Source: Patescibacteria group bacterium
GTDB taxonomy: Bacteria; Patescibacteriota; Patescibacteriia; PEXW01
Assembly: GCA_041671325.1 (NCBI GenBank)
Contig: JBAZBR010000001.1
Location: 221,332 to 285,331, forward strand
Length of the DNA: 64,000 nucleotides
Reading direction: 5' to 3'
The notes beneath the pieces were generated by a model. That model saw only the letters and a list, made by a program, of their open reading frames with translations, was not told the origin of the DNA and made no database searches. Below, in pieces: positions 15,583 to 64,000 of this stretch. Each line of letters starts with the position of its first letter. The first letter of the stretch is position 1. Both the position numbers and the translations under genes were made by a program.

Positions 15583-15643
15583 CTTGTTTTAGTCACCTTA
15601 ACTAAAGTATACTACAGCTATCTATGTACCGTGAAATGCATTT

Positions 15644-26862: not shown

Positions 26863-26920
26863 CTGAAATGCTTAGGATCAAAAAGGAGATTGCCACGTCG
26901 TCCCGCAGTCGCGGGACTTC
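26785..26920 (+). repeat. Direct repeat copy A: trpS 3' end (last ~26 codons plus stop) and downstream hairpin GTCCCGCagtcGCGGGAC
   Basis: ~83% identical to copy B at 27800-27927, read by eye. Both include the GATCAAAAG spacer and the hairpin. Confidence 0.7.
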
Positions 26921-27812: not shown

Positions 27813-27927
27813 GGAAAGAAACCATGCAAGAGGTGCGTAAAGCCGTGCATTATGACTATCCCGAGTTGTTGAAGTAGATCAAAAGCAAAAAATATTTAGA
27901 AGTCCCGGTCAGAGCCGGGACTTTTTA
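27800..27927 (+). repeat. Direct repeat copy B: out-of-frame relic of the trpS 3' end (...RAVGKETMQEVRKAVHYDYPELLK*) plus the terminator GTCCCGGtcagaGCCGGGAC+T5
   Basis: Aligns codon-by-codon to 26785-26862 with ~14 substitutions. The terminator hairpin is also homologous. Confidence 0.7.
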
Positions 27928-40622: not shown

Positions 40623-41226
40623 TATGCGCGTCTATTTCTTCCAAGCCCCCAGCGACAAGCCCCGGTTTGAAAATATCCGAATGGAGATTTTGGAAGTTTT
40701 AGACATGAAAAAAGTTTTTTATGTTACTTCTGACGGCAAAAACAGTTTGGATATTCCCGCCGAAGAATTGGAAGCCTTGAACGAAAGCGGGGGATCCATG
40801 CTAGATAAGATGGATGCTTTAGTCATTGAAGGCTCCACGCCAGATGCGGACATTGGCTATTTATTGGCTTATGCCATGAGTTTGCGACGACCAACCTTGT
40901 ATTTGTATGATAAGGATATTTCCAATAAAGGCGTTTTGAAGTTTTTAGGCAATCGCCAAATCCCCGGGCACATCCATGTCAAATCATATTCCGGTGAACA
41001 GGTTAAGGATTTCGTGGACAAATTCATAACGGATTTGCAAGGCGATGAAGCCGAGGAATTGCCTAGCATTAAATTCACCTTACGCATTACCCCGCAAATG
41101 GAGAGGTACTTGCAATGGAAAGCCAAGAAATTCAAGATGACCAAGGCAGATTTCCTGCGGGAAAAAATTTCCGTAGAGCTGATTGAAAAGGATGAGGAAT
41201 ATCAAAAATATTTAAAGAAGAAATGA
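40594..41226 (+). CDS. Hypothetical protein with a nucleoside 2-deoxyribosyltransferase-like core and a C-terminal ribbon-helix-helix-like tail. The likely start is the ATG at 40624 (MRVYFF).
   Basis: ALVIEGSTPDADIGYLLAYAMSLRRPTLYLYD resembles the NDT/YtoQ-fold active region. The C-terminus is TLRITPQMERYLQWKAKKFKMTKADFLREKI. Confidence 0.4.
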   Translation: MGWKKRKPNSMRVYFFQAPSDKPRFENIRMEILEVLDMKKVFYVTSDGKNSLDIPAEELEALNESGGSMLDKMDALVIEGSTPDADIGYLLAYAMSLRRPTLYLYDKDISNKGVLKFLGNRQIPGHIHVKSYSGEQVKDFVDKFITDLQGDEAEELPSIKFTLRITPQMERYLQWKAKKFKMTKADFLREKISVELIEKDEEYQKYLKKK

Positions 41227-41227
41227 T

Positions 41228-42640
41228 ATGATTGAACTATTAAAAATAATTTATTGGTTAGTTGCAATTACGAACTTTATTGTAGCAGTTTTCGTTTTGT
41301 TAAAGGGGATAAAGAAAAAGCCTAACTGGTTATTTTTTCTTTTGGTAATGGCATGTAATGGCTGGTTAATCTCAAATTATTTTTCATATTTCGTCAGAGA
41401 TCTAAATGTTGCTTTAATTGCAGCACGGGTATCTTACTTTTTTGCCTCATTAATAATGCCATTTTTAATTCTTTTTGTTTATAACTTCCCATTCAAGACA
41501 AGTTTTAAGAATAAAAATTATTTCATTATAATTATTCCTGCAATACTTTCTGTGTTTTTATCTTTTGGTCCATGGTTTGTTAAAAGTATTGAGATTAAAG
41601 AAAAAATTAATTTCTATGTTAATGGGAATTTGCATTTATTTTATACTTTATCGATTGGATTATATCTAATCATTTATTGTTACATTTATTTTAAGAAGTT
41701 TAAACAAGCGAATCCGATTGAAAAATCAAAATTAAAATATATTGTAATAGGGTTAATAATTACCGCACTTTTTAGTATTTATTTTGATTTATTATATCCA
41801 TATATTCATAAAATTGAAGCTTGGTCTGGCGGAGTTTATGGTTCACCAACAACAATAATTTTTACTCTATCTGTTGCTTATGCGATTTTACGTTACAGGC
41901 TTTTAGACATACGGATCGTCATTCAAAAAAGCTTTGTGCAATTGATGACTTTTGTGATTTTGTTTGCGATTTATGCTTATGCTCTGATTTTAATTCAGAA
42001 TGTTTCCAGCAAATCCGTGGCTTTAAATAATAATACTGGTTTATTAATTACTATTTTTGTCATTGCTTTAACTATTGAACCTCTCCGCAAATGGATCTAC
42101 AAACTTATTGACGGGATTTTTGAGAATAAGGAAAAACAAAGGCAAGAGGCCTTGCAAAGGGTGCAATTAGTCACTAATTCCACATTGCAATTCCAAACTT
42201 TACTAACCAAGACCCAAGTTGAATTGGAATCTGTTTTCGGGTCAGGAATTGACTTTTACTTGGCAGAAAGAAAGACTGGGAATTTTATCCAATATCCAAA
42301 AGGTGATAAAAAATTGGCTATGGAAAATTCTGTAGGTATGAAAATTTTACCGGGTAATATTCTCATTGCTGATGAATTACCCTATAGGATTGAAAACGGT
42401 GAGACTGCATTAATCCACACCTCGGATTGGTTAAAACAAAACCATTACTCAGCAGTTGTGCCCATTGGCTCAGAAGAGGAAATGGTAGGCATCTTTTGCC
42501 TTCCAATTAGTACCGGCCATCAAAAACCCATTACCGCAGACATGGTTAGGTTTTTGAAGGAATTCCAAACCTCGGTCTTTTTCCCTTTTGCCAGCGCTTA
42601 TGCCTACAAGTTGGCGATTGAGAGAATTGCGCTGAAGTAA
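41228..42640 (+). CDS. 7TM receptor-type sensor domain protein (HisKA_7TM-like) with a cytoplasmic GAF-like C-terminal domain; no output domain
   Basis: Seven predicted TM helices including ILRYRLLDIRIVIQ, then a ~190-aa soluble domain. Confidence 0.45.
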   Translation: MIELLKIIYWLVAITNFIVAVFVLLKGIKKKPNWLFFLLVMACNGWLISNYFSYFVRDLNVALIAARVSYFFASLIMPFLILFVYNFPFKTSFKNKNYFIIIIPAILSVFLSFGPWFVKSIEIKEKINFYVNGNLHLFYTLSIGLYLIIYCYIYFKKFKQANPIEKSKLKYIVIGLIITALFSIYFDLLYPYIHKIEAWSGGVYGSPTTIIFTLSVAYAILRYRLLDIRIVIQKSFVQLMTFVILFAIYAYALILIQNVSSKSVALNNNTGLLITIFVIALTIEPLRKWIYKLIDGIFENKEKQRQEALQRVQLVTNSTLQFQTLLTKTQVELESVFGSGIDFYLAERKTGNFIQYPKGDKKLAMENSVGMKILPGNILIADELPYRIENGETALIHTSDWLKQNHYSAVVPIGSEEEMVGIFCLPISTGHQKPITADMVRFLKEFQTSVFFPFASAYAYKLAIERIALK

Positions 42641-45150: not shown

Positions 45151-46407
45151 ATGCCAAAACTAATTAGTTTAAAAGCGATTGAAATTTTAGATTCACGCGG
45201 TAACCCAACTTTGCAGGTCAAAGCAGATTTTGATGATGGCAGCACTGGTACAGCTGGTGTGCCTTCAGGTGCTTCTACTGGTAGCCATGAAGCTTTGGAA
45301 TTGCGGGACAATGACCAGCGTTTTCATGGTAAAGGCGTCAGGAAAGCTGTTAGTAATGTCAACCAAGAAATCGCCAAAGTTTTAGTGGGTAAGGAAATTA
45401 AAGATTTGAAAAAAATTGATAAAAAACTTTGTACCTTGGATGGTACAAAAAATAAAGCCAGGCTGGGAGCCAACGCCATCTTGGGCGTTTCTTTGGCTAT
45501 GGCCAAAGCTTTGGCCAAAAGCCAAAAACAGCCTTTATATAAATTTTTAATTCAAGAGTATGGATTTAAGCTTGGACAAGTGAAATTTCCCAGGCCAATG
45601 TTCAATGTCATAAATGGCGGCTTGCATGCGGATTCGGGCTTGTCATTTCAGGAATACATGGTCATCCCTAAAACTGGAAATTTTCCAGAAGATGTCAGGT
45701 GCGGAGCAGAAGTTTTTCAAAGTTTAAAAAAATTATTGACAAACAAAAGCCTTTCTACTTTAGTCGGGGACGAAGGCGGTTTCGCGCCGAATTTAAGGTC
45801 TAATGAGGAGCCTTTGCAATTATTAGCTCAAGCCGTGGAACAAGCGGGTTATGAATTAGGCAAGGATGTGGAATTAGGTTTAGATGCGGCGGCAACCCAA
45901 TTACTCAAACCTGAAGGTGCGTACTCCCTGGCTTTGGAAGGCAAGGGCTTAACACCTGAGCAAATGATTGCCTTGTATTTGGAATGGCATAAAAAATACC
46001 ATTTATTTTCAGTTGAAGATGGCTTAGCAGAAGATGATTGGGAAAATTGGCAAGCCCTGACCTCGGGATTAACCAAAGCCAGCATGATGGTAGTCGGTGA
46101 CGATCTTTTTGTGACTAATACAGAAAGATTAAAAATTGGCATTCAAAAGGGCGTTGCTAATTCAATTTTAATTAAAGTTAACCAAATTGGAACTTTGACT
46201 GAAACCATTGAAGCCATAAAATTAGCGCAAAAAAATAATTATCAAGTGGTAGTTTCGCATCGTTCAGGTGAAACCTGTGATAGCACGATTGCGGATTTAG
46301 CCTTGGCAGTAGGCGCAGGCTTTATCAAGTCTGGCTCTTTATCCAGAAGCGAAAGATCCGCAAAATATAACCGTCTGCTGACTATTTGGGAGGAAACCAA
46401 TGGCTAA
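45151..46407 (+). CDS. eno: Enolase
   Basis: AIEILDSRGNPTLQV, SHRSGETCD and other canonical enolase motifs. Confidence 0.95.
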   Translation: MPKLISLKAIEILDSRGNPTLQVKADFDDGSTGTAGVPSGASTGSHEALELRDNDQRFHGKGVRKAVSNVNQEIAKVLVGKEIKDLKKIDKKLCTLDGTKNKARLGANAILGVSLAMAKALAKSQKQPLYKFLIQEYGFKLGQVKFPRPMFNVINGGLHADSGLSFQEYMVIPKTGNFPEDVRCGAEVFQSLKKLLTNKSLSTLVGDEGGFAPNLRSNEEPLQLLAQAVEQAGYELGKDVELGLDAAATQLLKPEGAYSLALEGKGLTPEQMIALYLEWHKKYHLFSVEDGLAEDDWENWQALTSGLTKASMMVVGDDLFVTNTERLKIGIQKGVANSILIKVNQIGTLTETIEAIKLAQKNNYQVVVSHRSGETCDSTIADLALAVGAGFIKSGSLSRSERSAKYNRLLTIWEETNG

Positions 46408-47974
46408 AATAGTTTCGCAAATCAAACCATATTTGCCGGTTGTTTTAGTCGTAATTGACGGTTGGGGAATTGGCAAGCCCGGACCTTGGAACGCCATAAC
46501 CCAAGCAAAGACCCCGAATTATACCTATCTCTTGAAACGCTACCCTAACACAAGCCTTGAAGCTGGCGGGAGGGCGGTTGGTCTTTCTAAAGGCCAAGAT
46601 GGCAATAGCGAAGCCGGGCACATGAACATCGGGGCGGGCCGCGTGGTCTTGCAGGACGAAGTGGAAATTTCACGGGCTATCACGACTGGCGCATTTTTCC
46701 GAAACCCGGCATTCATCCGGGCTATCCGTCATGTCCAGAAGCATAACTCCACTCTTCATCTGATTGGGATGATGGGCAATAACCAAAGTGCCCATGCCAG
46801 TCCCGACCACCTCCTCGCCCTGCTGACCTTTGTCCGACTGATGAGGCTGAAGCATGTAAAATTGCATATTTTTACAGATGGTCGGGACAGCCCGCGTTTT
46901 GCGGCCATCAAGATTTTAAAAATGCTGGAGATGGAGCTAGGGAATACGCGCATTGCTTCGGTTACCGGCCGGTATTATGCCATGGATCGCGCATTGCACT
47001 GGGGGCGCATTAAACAGACATATGACCTACTCACCCTTGGGAGCGGGTTGCGGGCAACCAGCCCAGAAAGCGCAATCCTGGAGGCTTATAACCGGAATGG
47101 AAGTGACGAATTCATTATGCCAACAGCAGTGGTGCCTGAAGGACATCGCCCGAGCGTCGTGAAGGATAATGATTCAATTATCTTCTTTAACTTGCGCAGT
47201 GACCGGGCCCGACAGCTCACCAAGGCTTTCGTACAGCTGGATTTTTCTGGCTTCCGCCGGAAAAAAATTATTAAGAATTTAGTTTTTGTTGCCATGACGG
47301 ACTTTGGGCCAGATTTGCCAGGAGTCCTTTCAGCTTTTCCCAGCCGGGATATTGATGATACATTACCCATGGTTTTAAAAGGCTATAGGCAGTTGTACGT
47401 ATCCGAAAGTGAAAAATATGCGCATATGACCTATTTTTTTAACGGTGGATATGATCACCCCGTGGCAGGTGAAGATCGCGTCTCTATACCTTCACCAAAA
47501 GTGCTGACTTACGATAAACGGCCAGCCATGTCCACGGCAAAAGTCACGCAGTACGTCATTCGCGACCTAAAAAAACAAGCCCACGATTTTATTGCCCTAA
47601 ACTATGCGGCGCCAGATATGGTGGCGCACACCGGGCACATGCACGCGTCGATTAAGGCAGTTGAAGCCGTGGATAAAGGTCTTGGCATATTGGAACGAGC
47701 AGTTCGTAAGGCACATGGTACTCTGATTATCACCGCTGACCATGGTAACATTGAAGAATTGAAAAATATTAGGACTGGCGAAGTTGATACAGAACATTCT
47801 AATACCCCCGTACCTTTTATTTTAGTGAATAAAAATTATAAAAAGTGCAAATTAAGGAAATTTGGGTGTCTGGCCAATATCGCTCCGACCATCCTGGATT
47901 TAATGCAAGTCAGTAAGCCGAAACTGATGATAGGAAAAAGCTTATTAATTAAAAAGCAAAAACATGAATGCTGA
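46400..47974 (+). CDS. gpmI: 2,3-bisphosphoglycerate-independent phosphoglycerate mutase (iPGM), copy 1, GC-rich core
   Basis: VIDGWGIG, GNSEAGHMNIGAGRVV, TADHGN and the phosphatase/transferase domains. GC content of 46480-47750 is clearly elevated. Confidence 0.9.
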   Translation: MAKIVSQIKPYLPVVLVVIDGWGIGKPGPWNAITQAKTPNYTYLLKRYPNTSLEAGGRAVGLSKGQDGNSEAGHMNIGAGRVVLQDEVEISRAITTGAFFRNPAFIRAIRHVQKHNSTLHLIGMMGNNQSAHASPDHLLALLTFVRLMRLKHVKLHIFTDGRDSPRFAAIKILKMLEMELGNTRIASVTGRYYAMDRALHWGRIKQTYDLLTLGSGLRATSPESAILEAYNRNGSDEFIMPTAVVPEGHRPSVVKDNDSIIFFNLRSDRARQLTKAFVQLDFSGFRRKKIIKNLVFVAMTDFGPDLPGVLSAFPSRDIDDTLPMVLKGYRQLYVSESEKYAHMTYFFNGGYDHPVAGEDRVSIPSPKVLTYDKRPAMSTAKVTQYVIRDLKKQAHDFIALNYAAPDMVAHTGHMHASIKAVEAVDKGLGILERAVRKAHGTLIITADHGNIEELKNIRTGEVDTEHSNTPVPFILVNKNYKKCKLRKFGCLANIAPTILDLMQVSKPKLMIGKSLLIKKQKHEC

Positions 47975-49567
47975 ATCATTTGTACCTCGAGTCAGGCCAC
48001 TGGTATTATTAATTTTAGACGGCTGGGGAATTGGCAAGCCTTCCAGAAGCAATCCCTACAGCATTGCTAAATTGCCTAATTATGAAGATTTGATTTTGCA
48101 TTATCCAGCCATAGCCTTGCAGGCTTCCGGTGAGTCCGTAGGTTTACCTTGGGGTGAGATGGGCAATTCTGAAGTCGGCCACGTGAATTGGGTTCGGGAA
48201 AAATCATATACCAAAATCTTCCCAGGATTAACCGGGCAATATCTGACGGCAGTTTTTTCAAAAACCCAGCCTTGTTATCAGCTATCGAAAATACCAAGAA
48301 ACGGAATACCGCCCTGCACCTTATGGGCCTGGTAAGTTCTGGCGGAGTCCACAGTTTTAATGAACATGCTTATGCCTTGATTGAAATGGCCAAGCAACAA
48401 GGCGTGAAAGAACTCTATTTCCATGCTTTTTTGGATGGCCGAGATACGCCGCCAAAAAGCGCGGAAAATTTTATCGGCAAGCTGATAAGCCACATGAAAG
48501 AAGTTGGCTTAGGCAAGATCGCCACCTTAAGCGGCAGATTTTACGCCATGGACCGTGATAATCGCTGGGATAGGGAAGAAAAAGCCTTTAAAGCCTTGGT
48601 CAAGGGTGAAGCGGATAAAAAAGGCCCAGACCCAATTGCTTTAATCCAGCAAAGTTATGCGGTTGGAGTGTATGATGAAGAATTCATCCCAACTGTCATC
48701 ACCAATGAAAAAGGCGAGCCTGTTGGCACTATAAAAGACGGTGATAGTATTATAACTTTTAATTTTCGGCCAGACCGCATGCGGCAAATTACTAAGGTTT
48801 TTACCCTACCAGGTTTTGAAAAATTTGACCGGGGAACGTATTTTAAAGATTTGTTTTTTGTGACCATGACTGAATACGACAAGGACTTGCCGGTTATCGT
48901 GGCTTTTCCGCCAGAAGAAATAAATTACCCGATTGCTAGGGTTATTTCTGATGCGGGTTTAAAGCAAATGCATATAGCCGAAACTGAAAAATACGCGCAT
49001 GTCACTTATTTTTTCAATGGCGGACATGAACAAGCTTATCCCAATGAAGACCATGTGCTCATTCCCAGTCCGCATGTTTCCAGTTATGACCGCAAACCAG
49101 CCATGTCTGTTCGGGAAATCACCGAGAGGTTGGTTAAAGAACTGGCTAAAGGTACCTATGATTTTTATGTCGTTAATTTTGCCAATGCGGATATGGTTGC
49201 CCATACTGGTAATATGCAAGCTACTATTGAGTCTTTAGAAATTTTGGATGAATGTTTAAAACAAGTAGTGGAAGCAGTTTTAGCCATAAATGGCGCTTTA
49301 TATATCACGGCTGACCATGGCAATGCTGAAGAATTAGTAAACATGCAAACCGGCTCGATTGACAAGGAACATTCAACCAGCCCAGTTCCGTTAATCGCCG
49401 TAGCGAATTTTTGGAAAGACACTTCCCCATATATAATCCCAGGCGGCATGTCAGCCCTGAATTCAGCCCAGCCTGTGGGCATTTTGGCAGATGTGACCGT
49501 AACAATCCTGGAAACTTTGGGTTTGCCAGTGCCGGAAGAAATGACGGGCCGAAATTTATTAAATTAA
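47964..49567 (+). pseudogene. gpmI: Second iPGM paralog (native AT-rich composition) interrupted by a +/-1 frameshift near 48186
   Basis: The two overlapping track ORFs 47964-48335 and 48188-49567 together cover a full-length iPGM. The frame changes between GNSEVGHVN and (I/L)GSGKIIYQ. Confidence 0.6.
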
Positions 49568-52592: not shown

Positions 52593-53765
52593 TTATATGC
52601 TAATTTCACGATACTGATGTTGCCGCATGATATGGATGATGCTGTCGTTATCAGAAGGCGTTACCACTAGCATTGAACGGAACTTGCTGGGTATGACAAA
52701 ATTCTTGAGACGGCTGATGTCAAGATAAACGTAGTCATCAGTCGAAGAAAAAATACTGTACGGTTTTGCGGTTGACATTAGTACGCCTTCTTTTACCCAT
52801 GGCCGGTCTGTGGAAACTTCGAAAATCTTCATCACGGGTTCACCTTGGGCATTGCGGGCAAACCGTACAAAAGCCAGCCAATGAATCCATTCACCGATTT
52901 TTTCCCCATTAGCCATGATAAAACCAATTGGGCCATGGTTTTTTTGGAGTTCGGAAAGATACAGGATCCTGGCTGGGCCGCCGGGTTGGGTATGGTGGAC
53001 AAAAGCATCTTTCTGGTCTTTAGCCACAAAGATCATGCAATCGTCAAAATTTTCCCTGTACCCAGCTTTATTGGGCGAGCCAAGGAAAGTGACGAACCGC
53101 TTGCGATCGTCTGCGGTAGCACAGAGTTCACTAGCGGTTAAGAATTCCAACCGCTTGCCGTGCTTGCAAATATGCTCCAAATCAATCGTGTCTAAATGCT
53201 TATCCGTAAAGCGCGGAAGCTTCAAGTTGAAAACACCCGCAGGAGAAGCAACAAAAATTGTTTGGGTTATGTAGTTTAAAATAACCGAAAAAATTATCTC
53301 TCCCTTCCGTACGCAGGTGATTGAAGTCGTCGCCCCGGTAATTGAAGCGGGCGCTTCAAACATTTGATTCCAGATACTAATACTTTTCTCACGACCCATC
53401 AGGATGCCAAGCTTCTGCAGTTCCTGACCCTTAGAGATTTCTTGGATAAATCTTTTTAGAAAACTGGAACGGTCAGTTGGATCGCAAAAGAACATTAATG
53501 GCTGTCTAACTGGATCTGAATCACTCGGCCAACGCCGTTTTGCCGCTTCATCCAATTCTTCGGTTACAAAAATTGCATGATCATCAAAATCGCGAATTCT
53601 TCTGGCTATGCAGATTTCCGGAATTGCGTCTAGGCCAAGAGTGTCGCCTTTGCCATACCGAACCTGTGCCAAGGTTTCTGCGGCAGAGCTTTCAAATAGC
53701 TCACGCCATGCCGTTATCTCGGCGTTAATCGCCACGTCGCAATATTGTTTTTCAATGCCTTGCAT
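52593..53765 (-). CDS. Hypothetical 390-aa protein (GC-rich) with weak IMPase/FBPase-superfamily-like motifs
   Basis: FVTEELDE and FFCDPTDRSSFL loosely resemble the EE and DP(I/L)DG(S/T) metal-binding motifs. Confidence 0.4.
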   Translation of the reverse strand: MQGIEKQYCDVAINAEITAWRELFESSAAETLAQVRYGKGDTLGLDAIPEICIARRIRDFDDHAIFVTEELDEAAKRRWPSDSDPVRQPLMFFCDPTDRSSFLKRFIQEISKGQELQKLGILMGREKSISIWNQMFEAPASITGATTSITCVRKGEIIFSVILNYITQTIFVASPAGVFNLKLPRFTDKHLDTIDLEHICKHGKRLEFLTASELCATADDRKRFVTFLGSPNKAGYRENFDDCMIFVAKDQKDAFVHHTQPGGPARILYLSELQKNHGPIGFIMANGEKIGEWIHWLAFVRFARNAQGEPVMKIFEVSTDRPWVKEGVLMSTAKPYSIFSSTDDYVYLDISRLKNFVIPSKFRSMLVVTPSDNDSIIHIMRQHQYREISI

Positions 53766-53903
53766 ACTTTTCCTCCATTCAAGTTAAGCGTATTTAGTTG
53801 TTAAATTACCTTGTTTATTAACAACATCTTAAGCAAGGTTTTGATTGTAGTCAAGCCATTAAATTACTTTTGAAACGATTATTTATTCAGTCAAATTTTT
53901 TTA

Positions 53904-54959
53904 GTGTATACTTTAAATATGAAGAAAATCACATTTCCAAAAGACGAACTGGTCCATAACACTTTTTTGGAATGGTGGTATTGGAATGGCCAGCTTTGGG
54001 ACGAACAAGGCCGACATTACAGTTACATGAATTGCCTTTTCCGGATCAAGCCAAAAAAGGTGCAATTACCGCTTTTCAAGAGGGTGCCTTTTGAAAATAT
54101 GTATTTTTCCCACTCCTTGCTTTCAGATATTACCCGTAAAAAATTTACAACCCAAATTGACTATTTGGACTTGGTTGCCAAAGACAGTTTTTCCAAACCC
54201 AATTTATTCGTAAACTACGCCAGTCCCATTACCAAAACCGGGTACTTCAATAAAGTTATGGAATTTAAGGATGACCATTATTTTTTAAAGAATGAAAATA
54301 TCGAATTGAATTTAGGTTTAGTTAAAAAACCTTTGTTGGAGAACGGCAATGGTTTTGTTAAATTAAGCACCAAGAAGTCCTATTATTATTCTTTAACTAA
54401 TCTTTCCACCCAAGGCGTAATTAAAATCAATAATCAACTAATTCAAGTTAAGGGTAAATCTTGGATGGATCACCAATGGGCTAATGTAAAATTTACCCGG
54501 GATAAGTGGGATTGGTTTTCCATACAACTTGAAAATAATTCTGAATTAGTCTGTTACCAATATGGCAAGGGTAAAAACAAATCAACTTTAGCCACTATTA
54601 TCCATCCAAATTCCAAGCAGGAATCTACGAAAATAGCCTTTATTAAACCTTGTGGAAAATCTTGGCATAGCTCAAAAACGCACGCAGATTATCCTTTAGA
54701 ATGGCAGATTGAAATTCCTAAATTTAAATTAAAAATTCAAGCTAGGGCATTAAATAACAATCAAGAGGTTATTTTCGGCGTATTGAATTATTGGGAAGGA
54801 CCAATGGAAATAAAAGCCCAAATAGCCGATCGCTCGGTTACGGGTTGGGGATTTACTGAACTGGTTGGTTATGATTCAGTTTTTAATGACCGGACAATGT
54901 TAAAAAATAATCTTAAGGATAGGTTAGTAAACCGTTATAAAAAATTTTTTACATTTTAA
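53904..54959 (+). CDS. AttH/CrtC-like lipocalin-fold protein (hydroxyneurosporene synthase-like family)
   Basis: N-terminal FPKDELVHNTFLEWWYWNGQL resembles the conserved HP..EWWY.TG motif of the AttH/CrtC family. Confidence 0.5.
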   Translation: MYTLNMKKITFPKDELVHNTFLEWWYWNGQLWDEQGRHYSYMNCLFRIKPKKVQLPLFKRVPFENMYFSHSLLSDITRKKFTTQIDYLDLVAKDSFSKPNLFVNYASPITKTGYFNKVMEFKDDHYFLKNENIELNLGLVKKPLLENGNGFVKLSTKKSYYYSLTNLSTQGVIKINNQLIQVKGKSWMDHQWANVKFTRDKWDWFSIQLENNSELVCYQYGKGKNKSTLATIIHPNSKQESTKIAFIKPCGKSWHSSKTHADYPLEWQIEIPKFKLKIQARALNNNQEVIFGVLNYWEGPMEIKAQIADRSVTGWGFTELVGYDSVFNDRTMLKNNLKDRLVNRYKKFFTF

Positions 54960-55241: not shown

Positions 55242-55589
55242 CTATTTTGGAATTCCAGTAAAGAAAGCAATCAGCCATGCACACCAGGCATAAATCGAGT
55301 ATTTATGGAAAAGGTGCGCAGGTTTTCCGCCTTTAAAATATGCCCGCAATGCCCAAATCAAATGCAGGAGCATGATAATTAAAGCGGCATAACCACAGCA
55401 TTTATGAAAGTCAAGCTGATGAGTACGAGCTGACAAACGCATTATAGTTGTCCCGATCAAATCATCAGCAAAGCCCAAGCAAAAAATAATTATCATCCAG
55501 CGCTCAAGGTGGTGCTTGATTTTCTCTGACCAGATTGCCGTGGTATAGAACATTAAGGCCAAAATCATGAAAAGAACTGCCCAAAACAT
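55242..55589 (-). CDS. Hypothetical integral membrane protein (4 TM)
   Basis: 115-aa hydrophobic ORF. Confidence 0.45.
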   Translation of the reverse strand: MFWAVLFMILALMFYTTAIWSEKIKHHLERWMIIIFCLGFADDLIGTTIMRLSARTHQLDFHKCCGYAALIIMLLHLIWALRAYFKGGKPAHLFHKYSIYAWCAWLIAFFTGIPK

Positions 55590-55666
55590 TTTGTCCTCCT
55601 TGGTTTTGAATTAATTTACACCCCAGCAATAGAATGTCAAATATTTAATAGAGCATACTTCAATTT

Positions 55667-56371
55667 ATGGGCACTTACCAAGAATTTATTTTAGACTATA
55701 AAAAATTAGACAATCCAAAACAAGCCAATATTTTGCGAGGGTTTTTCAAAACGGGTAAAGGCGAATATGGAGAAGGTGATGTATTTTTGGGCATAAAAGT
55801 CCCGGTACAAAGATCGGCAGTCAAAAAATATTACGATTTGCCAATTAATGATGTCATTAGAATTTTAACAAACAAGATTCATGAGTATCGTTTATCGGCA
55901 TTGTTTATATTGGTGCATAAGTTTCAAAAAGGGGATGATGCTTTAAAAAATCAAATCTTCAATTTATACCTTAAAAATACCAAGTTCATTAATAACTGGG
56001 ATTTGGTGGATTTATCTGCGCCAAATATAGTCGGTAATTATTTATTGGATAAACCCCGAACAATTTTATATGAGCTGGCTAAATCCAAGAATCTCTGGGA
56101 AAGACGGATTTCAGTGTTAAGCACATTTACTTTTATACGCCAAAATGATTTTAAAGATACCTTACGAATCAGCGGAATATTATTAAATGATAAACACGAT
56201 TTAATCCATAAAGCCGTGGGATGGATGTTAAGGGAAATCGGCAAAAGAAACAAAAAAATAGAAGAAAATTTTTTAAAGAAATATTATCGCCAAATGCCCA
56301 GAACAATGTTAAGATACGCAATAGAAAGGTTTCCTAAAGCTAAGCAACAAAAATATTTAAAGAAAGATTAG
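55667..56371 (+). CDS. DNA alkylation repair enzyme (AlkC/AlkD HEAT-like repeat DNA glycosylase family)
   Basis: NNWDLVD, LWERRISV and KAVGWMLREIGK motifs characteristic of AlkD. Confidence 0.75.
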   Translation: MGTYQEFILDYKKLDNPKQANILRGFFKTGKGEYGEGDVFLGIKVPVQRSAVKKYYDLPINDVIRILTNKIHEYRLSALFILVHKFQKGDDALKNQIFNLYLKNTKFINNWDLVDLSAPNIVGNYLLDKPRTILYELAKSKNLWERRISVLSTFTFIRQNDFKDTLRISGILLNDKHDLIHKAVGWMLREIGKRNKKIEENFLKKYYRQMPRTMLRYAIERFPKAKQQKYLKKD

Positions 56372-59583: not shown

Positions 59584-61632
59584 ATGAATTTAAAGCCTTT
59601 ATTTAATCCTAAAAGCATTGCCGTAATAGGTGCTTCACATGACCGGAAAAAGCTTGGTAATGTAATTTTTCGGAATTGCCTGGCTTTTGGGTTCAAGGGT
59701 AAAGTCTATCCAATCAACCCTAAGTTAAAGAAAGTGGAAGGCCGTCAGGCATTTCCCAATTTAATCAGTTTATCAAAAGCAGTTGATTTGGTAATAATTG
59801 TTACTCCTGCACCCACAGTCCCTCAAATTTTGAAAGATGCAGTTAAGGCAAAGGCAAAGTCAGTAGTAATTATCAGCGCCGGGTTCGGGGAAACTGGACT
59901 GCGCGGTAAAAATTTAGAATCGCAAATTAAAAAAATCATTAAAAATAAGATTCCAGTTATTGGCCCAAATTGTTTGGGGGTTGTTTTGCCATATTTGAAA
60001 TTGAATGCTTCTTTTGGCGTGGGTTTGCCTAAAAATGGCGGGGTCAGTATTTTATCCCAATCCGGCGCCATAGCCGTAGCCGAAATGGAGTGGGCCGCCA
60101 GCCAAAACATTGGTTTTAGATCAATCATAAGTTTGGGCAATAAAACCATTTTGAATGAAACGGATTTATTAAAAACTTTAGGTGAAGACAAGGGCACCAA
60201 AGTAATTTTGATGTATTTGGAAGATATTCGTGAAGGCCGAAAGTTTTTACAAATTGCCCAGCAAGTTACCAAGCGTAAACCCGTGGTCATTTTACGAGCA
60301 GGCCGCAGCCAAGCCGCAGCCAAGGCAGCGAAGTCCCATACTGGCGCTTTAGCTGGTTCCAGCCAAGTCACTGATGCGGTCTTGAAACAAGCTGGCTGCT
60401 TAGTAGTCAATAATACGGATGAGTGGTTCACCTTGGCTGAAGTTTTTGACCAACCAAAAAAGCCAGCCGGTAACCAGGTCGCGATTATCACTAATGCTGG
60501 CGGCCCAGGAATTTTAGCCACTGATGCGGTTGATAAAGCAGCTTTGCAGCTCTCGCAATTTTCCAAGAAATCTGACAGTTCATTAAAAAAAGTTTTGCCT
60601 CCAACTGCTGCCCTACACAATCCCATTGACGTGGTAGGGGATGCGCCGCCAGAAAGATACCAAAAAGCTTTAAATATAGTTTTAGCAGATAAAGCCGTGG
60701 ATATGGTTTTGGTCATTTTGACCCACCAATTAGTCACCGATTCCTTAAAGGTCGCTAAAATAATCATTGCCGCCCAAGCCAAAACTTCAAAACCAATCTT
60801 GCCGGTATTTATTGGCGGCGCTAAAGTCGCCAAAGGCATTGAGGTAATGGAAAAAGCTGGTTTGCCGGTTTTTGCTTATCCAGAGCAAGCCGTGTTTGCG
60901 GCTGAAGCGCTTTATAATTCCAAATTTGAAAAAAGGATTCCAGTTTTGCCGCTTTTGAAATCAAAAAAAATAGTTACTATGTCAGGGGTAGCAATTTCCG
61001 GCGAAGCAGCGGCCAAGGTTTTGAGTAAAGCCAAATTAAAAGTTTTACCGACATTTAAGCTCAAGAATTCAGTTCAAGCCATCAACATTGCAAAACGTTT
61101 GCATCTGCCAGTGGTCATGAAAATTGATTCACCAAAAATTTTGCATAAGACTGAAAGCGGGGGAGTTCTGGTAGACTTACACACTCCCAGCATGGTGAAA
61201 TCCGCTTTTAAGAAAATGCAAAATAAATTCAAAACCGTCTTAAAAAATCCGGATTCTAATATCGTTCTGCAAGACCAAAGGTTTGGCGGTTTGGAGCTGA
61301 TTATTGGCGCCATCCAAGACCCGCAATTCGGGCCGGTGGTAATTTTGGGCTTGGGCGGCATTTACGTGGAAGCTATCCGAAAAGTCAATTACCTTTGTGC
61401 GCCTATGGATAAAATTTCCGCACAAAGATTTTTGGAAAATTCAAATGTTTGGCCAATTTTAAAAGGCGTGCGGGGCCAAACTTTTGCAGTGAATAAAGTC
61501 GCCGAAATTTTAGTCAAAGTCAGTAATTTCATTGCCAAGCATCCGGAAATCAAGTCTTTGGACTTAAATCCAGTTTTAGTCGGCTGTGACCAGGCATTTA
61601 TTTTGGATGCCCGGATTGAATTCCTAAAATGA
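59584..61632 (+). CDS. Acetyl-CoA synthetase (ADP-forming), fused alpha/beta (NDP-forming acyl-CoA synthetase)
   Basis: CoA-binding N-terminus SIAVIGAS..., succinyl-CoA-synthetase-like flavodoxin and ligase domains, and C-terminal ATP-grasp. Confidence 0.85.
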   Translation: MNLKPLFNPKSIAVIGASHDRKKLGNVIFRNCLAFGFKGKVYPINPKLKKVEGRQAFPNLISLSKAVDLVIIVTPAPTVPQILKDAVKAKAKSVVIISAGFGETGLRGKNLESQIKKIIKNKIPVIGPNCLGVVLPYLKLNASFGVGLPKNGGVSILSQSGAIAVAEMEWAASQNIGFRSIISLGNKTILNETDLLKTLGEDKGTKVILMYLEDIREGRKFLQIAQQVTKRKPVVILRAGRSQAAAKAAKSHTGALAGSSQVTDAVLKQAGCLVVNNTDEWFTLAEVFDQPKKPAGNQVAIITNAGGPGILATDAVDKAALQLSQFSKKSDSSLKKVLPPTAALHNPIDVVGDAPPERYQKALNIVLADKAVDMVLVILTHQLVTDSLKVAKIIIAAQAKTSKPILPVFIGGAKVAKGIEVMEKAGLPVFAYPEQAVFAAEALYNSKFEKRIPVLPLLKSKKIVTMSGVAISGEAAAKVLSKAKLKVLPTFKLKNSVQAINIAKRLHLPVVMKIDSPKILHKTESGGVLVDLHTPSMVKSAFKKMQNKFKTVLKNPDSNIVLQDQRFGGLELIIGAIQDPQFGPVVILGLGGIYVEAIRKVNYLCAPMDKISAQRFLENSNVWPILKGVRGQTFAVNKVAEILVKVSNFIAKHPEIKSLDLNPVLVGCDQAFILDARIEFLK

Positions 61633-61913
61633 CTTTAGATATTCCCATAAGCCAAATAGGCAACCCAACTGTATTTTTTTCCCGTTTGGGTTATCATCAT
61701 GAGCCCAATGGCAGTTTTGCCAAAAGGGTCAGCGGCATGCCTTTTCCTCGTTACCATTTATATTTTGAGGTTGGCACAGACATGGTACGCGTAAATTTGC
61801 ATTTGGACGCCAAAAAACCCAGTTACCAAGGTACCAGCGCCCATGCCGGGGAATATGACGGGGAAGTGGTGGAAATGGAGCTTACAAGGATTAAACAGTA
61901 CGCGGGAGTTTAG
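61629..61913 (+). CDS. Hypothetical 94-aa protein; its 3' end is duplicated at 62713-62742
   Basis: ORF overlapping the acs stop by 4 nt; ends ...TRIKQYAGV*. Confidence 0.4.
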   Translation: MTLDIPISQIGNPTVFFSRLGYHHEPNGSFAKRVSGMPFPRYHLYFEVGTDMVRVNLHLDAKKPSYQGTSAHAGEYDGEVVEMELTRIKQYAGV

Positions 61914-61951
61914 CGGGAAATATCTTGAAATTTTTTGTGAAATAAGTATTT

Positions 61952-62704
61952 ATGGTTAAAATCAATCGACAAACCTCAATTATAATTGCGCTAATATCAT
62001 TTATTATATTAATTTTATCTTTTAGTCTACCAGAGGAAAATGGCGCAATTCTCATGATGATTGGTATTTTAGGTTTAATAGTTGGTCTGGCAGTCGGTAT
62101 TAATTCTTCATGGAAAAGAACAATTATTAATAAAAATGAATTTGATCTGGTTTACACATTCCATAAGACTAATTTTATTTCGCCCATAAGCGTTATTTTC
62201 AATATCTTGAGCCTGCTTTGGCTGCTTATTGCCAAAATTCAATCCGGCCAAACTTTAGAAATAGCATTAATATTTTTTATAGGTTTTTGGCTTTTGTCTG
62301 CAATTGAACTTATTGTCAAGATTGCCAAACAGTCAAATTTTGATGGTTTTACATTTGGTTTTAATAAAGAGGGTATCACGTTGCTCAAGGGTGATTGGGT
62401 GAAAAAATATGCTTGGGAAAATTATAGAGGATTTAATACAGCGTACTCAACTCGCTACGGTGAATTTCTTTCGTACCTCCCTTATATCTCAATATTTTTT
62501 CACGAAACGGATAAGTACACCATAAATTTATTTTATTCGGAAAAGGGCAGGCAGCAGTCCATGGAACAGACCGCTCCGGGGTATAAAGTAAAAAAGTATC
62601 ATCAAATTGAAACTCAGAAAAATAACTTGTCTCAAGTAATTTCATATCTTAAAAAATATTTACCCCAAATTCAAAAAGATATTTCTTTGAAGGAACGCTT
62701 ATAA
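61952..62704 (+). CDS. Hypothetical membrane protein (inserted accessory gene)
   Basis: 250 aa with 4 TM helices in the N-terminal half and a soluble C-terminal half. Confidence 0.45.
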   Translation: MVKINRQTSIIIALISFIILILSFSLPEENGAILMMIGILGLIVGLAVGINSSWKRTIINKNEFDLVYTFHKTNFISPISVIFNILSLLWLLIAKIQSGQTLEIALIFFIGFWLLSAIELIVKIAKQSNFDGFTFGFNKEGITLLKGDWVKKYAWENYRGFNTAYSTRYGEFLSYLPYISIFFHETDKYTINLFYSEKGRQQSMEQTAPGYKVKKYHQIETQKNNLSQVISYLKKYLPQIQKDISLKERL

Positions 62705-62806
62705 ATATTATCACAAGGATTAAACAGTACGCTGGGGTTTGAAGCTAAGAAAAACCGCCTCCGAATTGGGGGCGGTTGTCGTTCTTGTTTTACTCGTTTT
62801 GGTTCA

Positions 62807-63070
62807 TTAGGCTTGCTGGAGACTGGCTTTGTCAGCCTCGGCGAGTATTTGCAGAACGTAGCCGGCACCAGCCAAAATGAGCGCTATTACGCCGACCATT
62901 ACGACCGCATGCCGGAATATCACGAGAATGAATTCCGGAAGCTTGCCATCCAAAAGCAGTGAAAGAGTCAGGACAGCGATGGTTGCCAAAAAGGCAAGGG
63001 TGCCGATGATATTGAGTTTCTTTGCCTCCGCCAAGCGGACAGGGATCGGCTTTAAGGTACTCAATGACAT
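62807..63070 (-). CDS. Small membrane protein (hypothetical); GC-rich
   Basis: 87 aa with two TM helices. GGAGG SD immediately upstream on the minus strand. Confidence 0.4.
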   Translation of the reverse strand: MSLSTLKPIPVRLAEAKKLNIIGTLAFLATIAVLTLSLLLDGKLPEFILVIFRHAVVMVGVIALILAGAGYVLQILAEADKASLQQA

Positions 63071-63207
63071 ACGTTCCTCCCCATATTAGTGTATTGGTGA
63101 TTTTTGGTTTTCTAAAAAAAATAGCACTTAATTCGTGCTCTGTCAAGCTCGTGCTAATAAAACTTTTAAGGATATTTAGCAAATATAATTTATGCTATAA
63201 TTTAACA

Positions 63208-64000
63208 ATGAAGCAAGTTACTAATCGTTTCACTTGGAAAATTGGCGGCGCGGCCGGGGACGGCATCATGGTCACTGGCGCCATGCTGGGCAAGATTTTC
63301 ACCCGGGCCGGGCTTTGGGTTGTGGATTATTCCGAATATCCATCGCTTATTCGCGGCGGGCACAATACCCAGGTGGTGCAGGTTGATGAAGAGCAGATTT
63401 TTTCCCATGACCAAGGCAATGAAATTTTAGTGGCTTTGAACGAAGAGACGGTCAGACTCCATGCCAAAGAAATCAGCCCGAATGGCGTGATTATTTATGA
63501 TGAGGAAAGATTGAAAATTTTGCCAGCCATGATTGGCAATCGGAACGATATTTCTTTAATGGCCGTACCATTTAAAAAAATTGCCGCAGATTTAGGCGGT
63601 AAGGATATTATGCAGAATACGGTGGCCTTAGGCGCTTCTTTAGGATTTTTAACAGCGCCGTTTGAACTAGTGGAAGACGTCATGCATGATACTTTTGATG
63701 ATAAAGGTGAGGCGATAGTCAAGATGAACATTGATATTGCCAAGGCGGGTTATGAATATGTTTTGAAAAATTTTAAAAAGGAATTCCCTTGGCGCATCAA
63801 ACCAAAAAAATCAGAAAAACGGATTATCATTGGCGGCAATGATGCCATATCTTTGGGCCTGATCCAAGGCGGTTTGAAATTTTATTCAGCATATCCCATG
63901 ACCCCAGCCTCATCCATCCTTTCCACCTTGGCCGAATTAGCCCCGACTTATGGGCACATTACCAAACACTCGGAAGATGAAATTTCGGCAATCAATCTGG
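63208..64000 (+). CDS. 2-oxoacid:ferredoxin oxidoreductase, fused gamma-alpha subunit (5' partial; runs off the window end)
   Basis: Gamma domain WKIGGAAGDGI...YPSLIRGG, then alpha N-terminus IIGGNDAISLGLIQGGLKFYSAYPMTPAS. Confidence 0.8.
   Translation, partial: MKQVTNRFTWKIGGAAGDGIMVTGAMLGKIFTRAGLWVVDYSEYPSLIRGGHNTQVVQVDEEQIFSHDQGNEILVALNEETVRLHAKEISPNGVIIYDEERLKILPAMIGNRNDISLMAVPFKKIAADLGGKDIMQNTVALGASLGFLTAPFELVEDVMHDTFDDKGEAIVKMNIDIAKAGYEYVLKNFKKEFPWRIKPKKSEKRIIIGGNDAISLGLIQGGLKFYSAYPMTPASSILSTLAELAPTYGHITKHSEDEISAINL

Follow-up and report, generated by a model that had tools for sequence, protein, structure and literature searches.

The end of a conserved 94-aa gene occurs twice in this Patescibacteria genome, once as the working 3′ end of that gene and once as a displaced copy lying behind a 250-aa membrane-protein gene. 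This arrangement is best read as a fairly ordinary footprint of gene gain, closest to the published "insertions with long target duplication," and is probably the scar of a horizontal acquisition by recombination at the gene end after DNA uptake. The observations that carry this reading are (i) the repeat itself, (ii) the uninterrupted state of the site in relatives, (iii) the foreign composition of the cargo, (iv) the absence of mobile-element features from the window, and (v) the recurrence of the same layout at other loci. From these we infer a recombination route for which an element-encoded enzyme would not be required.

Organization of the locus

Positions refer to the window, i.e., the whole 64,000-nt stretch of DNA that was analyzed. 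The features of the locus are:

59584-61632, plus strand: ADP-forming acetyl-CoA synthetase (ACD) gene (Pfam ATP-grasp_5, Succ_CoA_lig, CoA_binding_2)
61629-61913, plus strand: 94-aa gene, the target, left intact; conserved in Patescibacteria, function not assigned
61884-61913, plus strand: repeat copy 1, ACAAGGATTAAACAGTACGCGGGAGTTTAG; working last nine codons and TAG of the 94-aa gene
61914-61951: left-hand spacer of the insert; 38 nt, AT-rich, 24% GC
61952-62704, plus strand: cargo, 250-aa membrane-protein gene (ORF); 32% GC
62713-62742, plus strand: repeat copy 2, ACAAGGATTAAACAGTACGCTGGGGTTTGA; displaced non-coding gene end (pseudo-tail), reads TRIKQYAGV-TGA
62753-62777: G+C-rich hairpin, AACCGCCTCCGAATTGGGGGCGGTT; predicted two-way intrinsic terminator, 10 nt after copy 2
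62807-63070, minus strand: second lineage-specific gene, 87 aa, hydrophobic; 51.5% GC, GGAGG ahead of ATG
63118-63146, minus strand: promoter-like site for the 87-aa gene, TTGACA-17-TGnTATTTT
63193-63201, plus strand: extended −10 box, TGCTATAAT; 6 nt 5′ of the POR start codon
63208-64000, plus strand: 2-oxoacid:ferredoxin oxidoreductase (POR) gene, the conserved downstream neighbor; cut by the window end

The ACD gene is the conserved upstream neighbor of the 94-aa gene, which it overlaps through ATGA and also precedes in relatives, and it may have served as a homology anchor for the recombination. The 94-aa protein has 82 homologs and an AlphaFold model with a pLDDT of 84. Between the repeat copies lies the gene that the preliminary description rightly recognized as encoding a membrane protein, with four predicted TM helices and a β-rich C-terminal domain that is weakly PH-like (weak PH-domain matches; model pLDDT 79). 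It is a genuine member of a gene family, with 11 distant homologs of equal length at 25-40% identity, and its GC content lies 2 SD below the 41% of the window. The spacer ahead of it offers the 250-aa gene neither a convincing promoter nor a convincing Shine-Dalgarno sequence; its transcription probably depends on read-through out of the ACD/94-aa unit and would stop at the shared hairpin.

This hairpin has a clean U-tract on the minus strand and is therefore predicted to serve mainly the 87-aa gene, although plus-strand read-through would be stopped as well. The terminator first described behind copy 2 is itself lineage-specific and is mainly that of the convergent 87-aa gene. No homolog was found for the 87-aa protein, and a search of ~5.8 billion proteins returned no close relative of either inserted gene product; neither matches Pfam, NCBIfam, PHROGs, or PADLOC. 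A phage or plasmid source of the cargo was considered and rejected, since tblastn yielded no matches in 50,697 phage and 72,556 plasmid records, IMG/VR yielded none, and neither PHROGs nor PADLOC gave a match. Scanning the region with Rfam and for tRNAs gave nothing relevant, and the window contains no tRNA gene.

The duplicated gene end

Copies 1 and 2 match at 26 of 30 positions, stop codon included, rather than at the 27 initially counted, since the stop codons TAG and TGA account for two mismatches. Both translate to TRIKQYAGV followed by a stop, as had been noted from the start, and it is copy 1 that genuinely ends the 94-aa ORF. The ungapped core comprises 28 nt (26/28 matching) with a start-to-start spacing of 829 nt. 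When the window is searched for this 28-mer with up to two mismatches, exactly two sites are returned, copies 1 and 2, a count reached by none of 100 dinucleotide-preserving shuffles. On direct reading, the 28-mer has no dyad symmetry. Similarity sets in abruptly at ACA and ends at, or ~3 nt beyond, the stop codon; the duplication spans 28-30 bp, or ~33 at most if the common AGC 3′ of the stop is included.

The sense-codon differences between the copies are all silent (GCG/GCT and GGA/GGG), and the stop codon is changed yet retained. Copy 2 starts 8 nt 3′ of the stop of the 250-aa ORF, in a different frame from that ORF, and sits in a 30-codon open stretch. As this stretch has no start codon, the repeat does not belong to a second genuine gene; had it done so, this would have spoken against an insertion. 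Copy 2 is a relic, and only copy 1 belongs to a gene. Fusion of TRIKQYAGV to the 250-aa protein by frameshift or read-through was likewise rejected, as copy 2 is out of frame and a canonical slippery heptamer is missing.

Both copies contain the lineage-specific ACA codon, which the nearest relatives lack, and each matches the L086 gene end at 26/30 positions, differing at two sites plus this codon. An assembly made independently from a different run (L085, SRR18595301) matches the entire region at 100% identity over 5,372 nt, so the locus is not an assembly artefact. A protein-level scan of the window for older, decayed gene ends revealed none beyond the two. One candidate upstream of POR (~63170-63190, AAGGAT...TTTAGC...AAATAT) gave a gapped local alignment score of 19 and is unsupported because that score is also reached by 16% of shuffled sequences and by 19% of the other segments of the window. 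The exact repeat pattern has 0 matches in JGI metagenomes.

The uninterrupted site in relatives

In L001/L005, L086, L007, L011, and L012, the 94-aa gene is followed by POR after 17-37 nt, and no gene lies between the two in L001, L086, L007, L011, or L012. L009, with a gap of 380 nt, is counted with them among six related lineages that keep the adjacency. In the window, ~1.29 kb separates the same two genes and holds the 250-aa gene, copy 2, the two-way terminator, and the minus-strand 87-aa gene. The −10 box TGCTATAAT is kept in relatives, where it stands directly 3′ of the 94-aa gene; in the window, the lineage-specific DNA ends on its right at this box. Both window copies align to the single gene end at the uninterrupted site of L086, L001/L005, L007, L011, and L012, with the caveat that the right flank there is POR, rather than the terminator and 87-aa gene. 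These relatives support the original proposal of a gene insertion bounded by a duplicated gene end.

As the extra DNA holds two lineage-specific genes, the terminator itself is lineage-specific. The comparison suggested at the outset, a relative in which the 94-aa gene directly precedes the terminator at 62750-62790, turned up no such genome: no strain was found with the order 94-aa gene, terminator, 87-aa gene, none lacking just the 829-bp unit, and no donor. L004 and L087 carry other genes at the same spot (a Macro-domain protein, AF_1845, and heliorhodopsin); four genes separate the 94-aa gene from POR in L004, and two do so in the window. The presence of different genes here in L004 and L087 marks the 94-aa/POR site as a hot spot of gene gain.

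Search for mobile-element features

Recombinases and reverse transcriptases (RTs) were sought among the 203 ORFs of the window by single-sequence phmmer and motif searches, and the results hold at the sensitivity of these methods. No tyrosine recombinase was detected (phmmer E > 2; no HxLRH; a lone LLGH in a 76-aa ORF) and no RT (phmmer queried with the L039 RT; Y[AVI]DD motif absent). Terminal inverted repeats are likewise absent from the unit, with only scattered AT-rich inverted matches of 10-15 nt. There is no transposase, and the 28-30-nt duplication varies in length between events, unlike the fixed target duplication of an IS. With respect to an integron cassette, neither an integrase nor an attC-like site is present; the sole strong hairpin is the terminator, which follows copy 2, and just 8 nt between the cargo stop and copy 2 leave no attC-like hairpin. 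An integrative element is likewise not indicated, as no recombinase was detected in the 64 kb and the compared events have no common core. The absence of an integrase, RT, tRNA, terminal inverted repeats, and attC-like site therefore indicates that the locus is not a diversity-generating retroelement (DGR), an integron cassette, or an IS. The term "cassette" used at first is apt in a loose sense only, as no integron-type site or recombinase is present.

Recurrence of the layout at other loci

The parallel drawn early on with the trpS gene of the same window is confirmed, with the same arrangement found there:

26776-26871, plus strand: trpS working 3′ end, first copy of a 96-nt repeat
26994-27812, plus strand: cargo, 272-aa xylose-isomerase-like TIM-barrel gene; 31.5% GC
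27791-27886, plus strand: displaced trpS end, 78% identical; open 28-codon frame plus stop, then a terminator hairpin

The trpS insert and the 250-aa insert share nothing beyond AT-rich 12-mers and have no common terminal motif. Which of the two trpS ends is ancestral cannot be read from the nearest full-length relatives, which are ≤63% identical, and a contig 92% identical (L092) ends within trpS, ~100 nt short of the repeat.

Nor does the 250-aa gene stand alone; its small family is found again between duplicated gene ends in other genomes. In total, six such events occur in ~1.5 Mb, and three carry this membrane-protein family. L088 has a 31-nt repeat at 87% identity, with no chance match in shuffles, around a 254-aa homolog of the family and a 144-aa gene; its two gene ends differ by an in-frame 6-nt indel and by five silent versus two replacement changes. 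L089 has a 68-nt repeat at 90% identity. In L172, three copies of the end of an Xer-like recombinase gene bound two inserts, one of them with a 251-aa family member. The working and displaced ends of L172 differ at 23 of 111 nt, with 17 silent codon differences and only two replacements, both at the 5′ edge; within the 35 shared codons, all 17 differences are silent. This silent-only divergence implies that the ends diverged in working genes, i.e., that they derive from different working alleles. The two displaced ends of the array are unequal in length (66 and 105 nt), which indicates variable joins and no fixed site.

Between events, the repeats range from 28 to 108 nt and are unrelated in sequence, and the displaced end begins within ~10 nt of the cargo stop codon in five of the six events. 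An Xer-like recombinase gene stands at the head of both the L088 and L172 arrays, so that an enzyme-driven process is conceivable. In L172, it is the 3′ end of the recombinase gene itself that is repeated.

Origin of the displaced gene end

In the preferred reading, the promoter-less, AT-rich 250-aa gene would have been added right behind the stop of the 94-aa gene by recombination within its last ~30 bases. One gene-end copy would now terminate the 94-aa gene, which is thereby intact, and the other would be an untranslated relic 829 bp downstream, ahead of the terminator that formerly adjoined it; the 87-aa gene would have arrived earlier, together with this terminator. The DNA most likely came in by uptake from a related strain in which the 94-aa gene end was already followed by the 250-aa gene. 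The left side would then have been resolved by homologous recombination in the ACD/94-aa region and the right side by a join inside the resident gene end, either through homology-facilitated illegitimate recombination (HFIR) or through pairing with a pre-existing displaced end. Patescibacteria carry genes for DNA uptake (comEC, pili) and homologous recombination (PMC12455944), and HFIR is documented in naturally transformable bacteria (PMC6382021). Against this route stand the missing donor and intermediate strains, the lack of close relatives of both inserted genes, and the Xer-like genes of L088 and L172; in addition, random illegitimate joins do not predict a displaced end so close to the cargo stop in five of six events, and RecA-type pairing on ~30 nt, or on ends 79% identical, is inefficient.

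An in-place long target duplication, in which the 28-33 resident bases were doubled during insertion and the copies then drifted, is a less likely origin. Such doubling could arise from widely staggered breaks that were filled in or from a template switch to foreign DNA and back ~30 nt upstream. It accounts for the lineage-specific ACA codon in both copies, for their equal distance from the L086 gene end, for a repeat length as variable as in the published class, and for the missing mobility genes. The four differences in 30 nt within the window fit two alleles and in-place duplication with drift alike. In-place duplication fails, however, for L172, where all differences in the shared codons are silent; the indel and substitution pattern of L088 points the same way, and in the window, silent-only change together with a kept stop codon would require luck in a drifting relic (rough estimate, p 0.01-0.1).

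A circular precursor is harder still to sustain, and we consider it improbable. Here, a small circle comprising the cargo and a copy of the gene end would have integrated in a site-specific or Campbell-type manner, leaving the repeats as attL and attR; the catalyst would be either a tyrosine recombinase acting in trans (integron- or IMEX-like) or RecA working on the short end that both share. In its favor, integration by an integrase typically leaves direct repeats of 30-100 bp at a gene 3′ end (discussed in PMC2853133); the joins are ORF-precise, Xer-like genes head two of the arrays, and silent divergence between copies is allowed as well. Against it stand the lack of a detectable tyrosine recombinase among the window ORFs, the unrelated repeats of different events and the missing common terminal motif of the two window inserts, the lack of dyad symmetry in the 28-mer, and the differing extent of displaced ends within one array.

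Two further explanations have very little in their favor. If the 94-aa gene had been duplicated in tandem and its second copy mostly replaced or overwritten by the 250-aa gene, this would agree with the kept frame and stop codon of copy 2, but the similarity starts abruptly at ACA with nothing like the 94-aa gene upstream of copy 2 at the DNA or peptide level, the relatives are single-copy, and the cargo is compositionally foreign. Equally doubtful is a working role for copy 2, as part of a 3′ UTR or terminator or as a decoy for a reader of the 94-aa message end; its sequence is well preserved and the minimum-energy fold pairs it with the flank of the terminator hairpin (z = −2.5), but the terminator itself dominates that fold, Rfam gives no match, equivalent relics elsewhere are unrelated in sequence, and relatives have nothing comparable. 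Finally, DGRs are the best-known cause of a gene 3′ end recurring just downstream and are common in this phylum, and our scan did pick up a true DGR in L039, but a variable/template repeat pair is refuted for this window by the mismatch pattern (one of four mismatches at a copy 2 adenine, or two of four with roles swapped, and all other adenines unchanged) and the missing RT, besides the ordinary protein gene between the copies and the absence of the whole unit from relatives.

Comparison with known systems

The class of insertions with long target duplication (Nobusato et al. 2000, Gene 259:99; Furuta, Abe & Kobayashi 2010, PMC2853133) has no known mechanism and often shows low-GC inserts. 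It was defined on restriction-modification (RM) genes in Proteobacteria, Thermus, and similar bacteria (PMC2853133); restriction and modification genes were a search criterion of Furuta et al. 2010, who required duplications >30 bp as a cut-off against site-specific recombination. The repeats frequently span a stop or start codon, which keeps the target gene intact, and most cases come from naturally transformable bacteria (PMC2853133). The window locus resembles them in (i) genes placed between direct repeats that each align to the single copy at the relative's uninterrupted site, (ii) variable repeat length, (iii) lack of a transposase or integrase, (iv) a repeat that spans the stop, (v) an intact target, and (vi) a low-GC insert. 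It differs in its 28-30-bp repeat, which is below the cut-off that the 96-bp trpS repeat meets, in its 4-TM membrane-protein cargo without a defense or RM match, in its Patescibacteria host, and in that related loci show that the displaced end can stem from a different allele.

HFIR has been described in laboratory transformation experiments (de Vries & Wackernagel 2002; Prudhomme et al. 2002; Meier & Wackernagel 2003; summarized in PMC6382021). As in HFIR during natural transformation, the proposed route combines one homologous anchor with one illegitimate join and involves no mobile-element enzyme, and an HFIR join inside the resident gene end would produce exactly the order of gene with incoming end, cargo, and resident end. 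The silent-only divergence of the gene ends in L172 lends HFIR indirect support, but tight, ORF-precise right ends are not what it predicts.

Other systems are more remote. The minimal mobile elements of Neisseria, reportedly described by Saunders and Snyder in 2002, are said to be exchanged by homologous recombination in both flanking genes; like the present locus, they occupy a fixed spot between two conserved genes with different whole-gene inserts per lineage, but they leave no duplicated gene end. The term itself is used in PMC3787668. In rhs and cdiA orphan C-terminal/immunity modules, new 3′ portions displace older ones downstream and arrays form. The three-end array of L172, in which main-gene fragments alternate with small genes, is similar, whereas the piece repeated in rhs/cdiA is an internal conserved segment ahead of a variable toxin domain and that of the window is an invariant gene end with nothing variable after it. 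Integron cassettes, and genomic islands integrated at tRNA or protein-gene 3′ ends, are comparable as small, often promoter-less units that are added at one defined point and expressed from upstream, and whose direct repeats restore the 3′ end of the target; the window differs in having no integrase or structured attC and the events in having no common core. DGRs share the recurrence of a gene 3′ end a few hundred bases downstream, in contrast to the window, which has no RT or adenine-specific differences and carries a foreign gene between the copies.

Implications for gene gain in Patescibacteria

Patescibacteria have tiny genomes, are mostly not yet genetically tractable, and are thought to gain genes mainly via DNA uptake; among them, Saccharibacteria have been transformed. 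We know of no base-resolution account of how foreign genes are stitched into their genomes. For this locus alone, the consequence is modest, namely one accessory membrane protein under the ACD/94-aa transcription unit.

A broader, rather speculative view is that Patescibacteria systematically gain promoter-less, nearly ORF-trimmed units behind the stops of conserved genes in a cassette-like style. The 250-aa family would then be a recurrent unit behind three unrelated targets, and the displaced ends would act as portable recombination arms, a functional analog of attC, with arrays building up as in the three ends of L172, possibly with Xer-like help.

Displaced gene ends form a simple, searchable footprint of single gain events, from which the precise join and the order in which the DNA arrived can be read. 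Where the two ends differ only silently, they also reveal the source of the DNA, a diverged relative. Given the six events in ~1.5 Mb, a phylum-wide scan could measure the frequency, sites, and donors of gene gain, and could also illuminate the unexplained insertions with long target duplication of competent pathogens.

Architecture of the 94-aa locus

The 250-aa membrane-protein gene of this Patescibacteria MAG lies between two copies of a gene end, as the preliminary description held, and the second copy is not a genuine gene, having no start codon and lying in another frame. The source names at the locus are WCT08_01165, WCT08_01170, and WCT08_01175, and its features are as follows.

61629-61913, + strand: 94-aa ORF, overlapping the stop of the ADP-forming acetyl-CoA synthetase gene; its genuine end is copy 1
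61884-61913, + strand: repeat copy 1 (working end), ACAAGGATTAAACAGTACGCGGGAGTTTAG
After copy 1: spacer of 38 nt, 24% GC
61952-62704, + strand: 250-aa ORF (cargo)
62713-62742, + strand: repeat copy 2 (displaced end, or relic), ACAAGGATTAAACAGTACGCTGGGGTTTGA
62753-62777: G+C-rich hairpin, 10 nt past copy 2
62807-63070, - strand: 87-aa gene with its own GGAGG and promoter-like site
Start at 63208, + strand: 2-oxoacid:ferredoxin oxidoreductase (POR), with TGCTATAAT ahead

Both repeat positions stand as first reported, while the identity, put at 27/30, is 26/30 because TAG versus TGA counts as two mismatches. The ungapped core is 28 nt (26 identical), and the copies are spaced 829 nt start to start. 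Similarity sets in abruptly at ACA and stops at the stop codon, or ~3 nt beyond if a common AGC is counted. With up to two mismatches the 28-mer occurs in the window at exactly two sites, copy 1 and copy 2, a count reached in 0/100 dinucleotide-preserving shuffles. The arrangement is no assembly artefact, since contig L085, derived from another sequencing run, matches it at 100% across 5,372 nt.

Copy 2 begins 8 nt past the stop of the 250-aa ORF, in a different frame from it and within a 30-codon stretch without a start codon, and is therefore untranslated. Inspection of the upstream sequence revealed no convincing promoter or Shine-Dalgarno of the 250-aa ORF's own. The terminator described behind copy 2 belongs primarily to the convergent, minus-strand 87-aa gene, because the clean U-tract of the hairpin is on the minus strand. 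With its promoter-like site, GGAGG, and terminator, the 87-aa gene is a complete unit and probably a separate foreign acquisition; it has 51.5% GC (GC3 60%) versus 41% for the genome, and its hydrophobic product has no homologue among ~5.8 billion proteins.

The 94-aa/POR junction in relatives

Conserved among Patescibacteria, the small 94-aa protein has 82 homologues and varies in its last ~eight residues. In the alignment of these homologues (A1), H23, H43, H58, D60, H72, E75, and a GEYDG motif are invariant. The structural model is confident (pLDDT 84) and has no significant PDB match; the protein may be a small metal-binding partner of the acetyl-CoA/2-oxoacid module.

In closer relatives, the gene is flanked by the same two genes, ADP-forming acetyl-CoA synthetase upstream and POR downstream. 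The uninterrupted configuration exists: in comparison loci L086, L001/L005, L007, L011, and L012, only 17-37 nt, containing a TGnTATAMT box, separate the 94-aa stop from the POR start (identity 81% for L086 and 76% for L001/L005). The gap is 380 nt in L009. L004 and L087 hold a different insert at the same position. In L004 (5310-7792) it encodes four proteins (Macro-domain, 67-aa, AF_1845-like lipoprotein, and heliorhodopsin) and is not flanked by any detectable repeat; the short contig L087 reaches just into the beginning of this Macro-domain gene, from ~1128. Adjacency of the 94-aa gene and POR is therefore ancestral, and the site is a hot spot of gene gain. The window lineage alone has the intervening ~1.29 kb and the two genes on it. 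The predicted precursor, a 94-aa gene followed directly by the 62750-62790 terminator, occurs in none of the relatives compared. The 87-aa gene and terminator would have arrived first, and the 250-aa gene later, between the 94-aa gene and the terminator.

An extended -10 box lies 6-9 nt ahead of the POR start codon in the window (63193-63210) and all close relatives (L001, ~5296-5310; L086, ~708-724; also L007, L011, L012, and L004), in the form TGCTATAAT, TGCTATACT, or TGGTATACT. POR mRNA is probably leaderless, since the box leaves no room for a Shine-Dalgarno before the start. In L004 and L087, a TGGTATATACT box still lies right behind the 94-aa gene, before the inserted Macro-domain gene.

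The cargo family

A word-indexed search with the 250-aa protein matches only itself. When 1.84 billion representatives were searched exhaustively with HMMER, 11 homologues emerged, of equal length and 25-40% identical; the gene family is therefore real. AlphaFold predicts (pLDDT 79) four long helices and, at the C-terminus, a domain rich in beta structure; in the PDB the model resembles only PH-like domains, and these weakly (E ~0.5). Pfam, NCBIfam, PHROG, and PADLOC give no match to the protein, and phage, plasmid, and viral-contig records contain no relatives.

Recurrence of displaced gene ends

Displaced ends were sought in ~1.5 Mb, mostly Patescibacteria (the window and fetched loci, ~1,500 crude genes), as a gene's last 60 nt or last 24 residues found again within 3-4 kb downstream, with the upstream side as control. 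Once tandem paralogues (L064, L106, L114, L119, L124) and a diversity-generating retroelement (DGR) in L039 are set aside, the hits are two events in the window and those in L088, L089, and L172 (with L173 and L174).

Window, trpS: working end 26776-26871; cargo 26994-27812; displaced end 27791-27886
L088: 3941-3987 and 5217-5258, NAD_binding_10 gene end and displaced copy in an accessory-gene array
L089: 6586-6654 and 7124-7192, CMAS-type methyltransferase gene end and displaced copy, likewise in an accessory-gene array
L172 (also L173, L174): 637-747, 1148-1214, and 2361-2465, three 3' ends of a Xer-like tyrosine recombinase gene

The trpS locus, likened to the 94-aa locus from the outset, does share its layout. 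The last 28 codons of trpS, together with the stop, are found again 1,015 nt downstream (78% across 96 nt), and the displaced end is still an open frame, CKQTRAVGKETMQEVRKAVHYDYPELLK followed by a stop. In the conserved block EVRKAVHYDYPELL, 5/5 differences are silent. The cargo is a xylose-isomerase-like TIM-barrel gene whose ORF runs 22 nt into the second copy, and a similar GTCCCG...CGGGAC hairpin stands behind each copy. The only close relative of this trpS found (92% identical; L092 5001-5834, JGI contig Ga0066637_10007231) breaks off at residue 278, ~100 nt short of the repeated segment, which may be an assembly break from strain variation at the locus.

In L088, the gene end recurs 1,276 nt downstream (27/31, no chance match in shuffles) and reads ...LENKDVRKAS..K and stop; the copies differ by five silent and two replacement changes and by an in-frame gap of 6 nt, and between them are a 254-aa cargo-family homologue and a 144-aa gene. 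The L089 repeat (68 nt, 90%) surrounds a 134-aa gene, and a cargo-family member is present in the same array; the contig terminates exactly at the second copy, which suggests that the repeat broke the assembly. In L172, the repeated end includes the catalytic-Tyr region LLGHESLDTTTRY, and the copies delimit two inserts, one a 134-aa gene, the other a DUF4190 gene with a 251-aa cargo-family membrane protein. The peptides of copies A and C are identical although nucleotide identity is 79%, and copy C is in frame directly behind the stop of the 251-aa gene.

The cargo family thus sits inside such an insert at 3/7 informative loci, behind three unrelated target genes; ~1,200 other genes yield about one event. 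The family gene is 9-13 GC points under its surroundings in these three loci and not so in L090, L175, and L176. GC content is 32% for the 250-aa gene, 31.5% for the trpS-associated gene, and 41% for the window.

Other stretches of the window under 34% GC (15551-17500, 40851-41700, 53751-54350, 55451-55900; lowest 26% at ~41200) include ORF 40594-41226 and, from 41228, the first part of a multi-pass membrane protein of 470 aa; DNA and peptide scans found no duplicated gene ends flanking them. Direct repeats of 45 nt (46435-46479, 47996-48040) and 22 nt (46045-46066, 46468-46489), 76-91% identical and containing GACGGTTGGGGAATTGGCAAGCC, look more like motifs conserved among tandem paralogues than like displaced ends.

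Known repeat-making systems

The window pair lacks the marks of four known systems: (i) for an RNA element, there is no Rfam match; (ii) for an IS or transposon, neither terminal inverted repeats nor a transposase; (iii) for an integron or integrative element, the 203 window ORFs include no tyrosine recombinase, the window has no tRNA gene, and the stretch from the 250-aa ORF to copy 2 contains no structured site; and (iv) for a DGR, only 1/4 differences on adenine (2/4 if roles are swapped) and no reverse transcriptase in the window. The test is able to detect a DGR, since the scan recovered a textbook one, with adenine-specific differences between template repeat and VR, in L039 (Magasanikbacteria MAG).

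1732-4238: L039 DGR
~2222-2337: VR, at the 3' end of the target gene
~2716-2830: template repeat
Minus strand: Avd-like ORF
3174-4238: reverse transcriptase

Mechanism

The working and displaced L172 ends differ at 23/111 nt, 18 of them third codon positions. Codon differences number 17 silent ones and two replacements, the latter confined to the outermost 5' edge, and the shared 35-codon peptide, catalytic-tyrosine region included, is identical. In-place drift of a relic is unable to yield this pattern: the ends diverged while each was in a working gene, and one of them therefore came with incoming DNA. The two relics of the array measure 66 and 105 nt; hence no single fixed site defines the joins.

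The window pair carries the same signature on a small scale. Its four differences comprise two silent changes and a stop altered yet kept, and a lineage-specific ACA codon is present in both copies. This signature points to a closely related donor, but so few differences are also compatible with duplication in place, the less likely origin.

The favoured mechanism, the simplest process giving the observed order, would begin with uptake of DNA from a relative carrying [gene][cargo], followed by homologous exchange within the conserved gene and a second join inside the resident gene end. The product would be [gene with intact end][cargo][second end][old downstream DNA], with repeat length marking where the second join fell and similarity ending at the stop codon because donor/recipient likeness ceases there. 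This route equals homology-facilitated illegitimate recombination as described for transformable bacteria (PMC6382021), and uptake and recombination genes are present in Patescibacteria (PMC12455944).

In 5/6 events, the relic begins within ~10 nt of the cargo stop codon, a proximity that random joins do not predict. It would follow if [cargo][relic] units travel together, the relic pairing with the recipient gene end, through tail-to-tail recombination or a circular intermediate, or, alternatively, if a dedicated enzyme acts.

Relation to published classes

The three-end array of L172 resembles the orphan modules behind rhs/cdiA genes. In the closest published class, insertion with long target duplication (Nobusato et al. 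2000; Furuta et al. 2010), the direct repeats flanking the inserted genes correspond to one copy at the uninterrupted site of a relative, mobility genes are absent, the insert is often low in GC, repeats often span the stop or start codon so that the target gene survives, and most cases are in naturally competent species (PMC2853133). The 94-aa locus matches these features except for the >30-bp cut-off (its repeat is 28-30 bp; that at trpS, 96 bp) and the RM cargo. As with Neisseria minimal mobile elements, the hot spot lies between two conserved genes, here the 94-aa gene and POR.

The original reading of a cassette-like insertion with a duplicated gene end is essentially right, and the 94-aa locus is an ordinary, if clean, footprint left by horizontal gene gain. 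What goes beyond routine is that the footprint recurs in the phylum, repeatedly carrying the same small membrane-protein family, and that one array, L172, shows displaced ends from different alleles. The recurrence, the common cargo family, and the allele evidence are worth a systematic scan.
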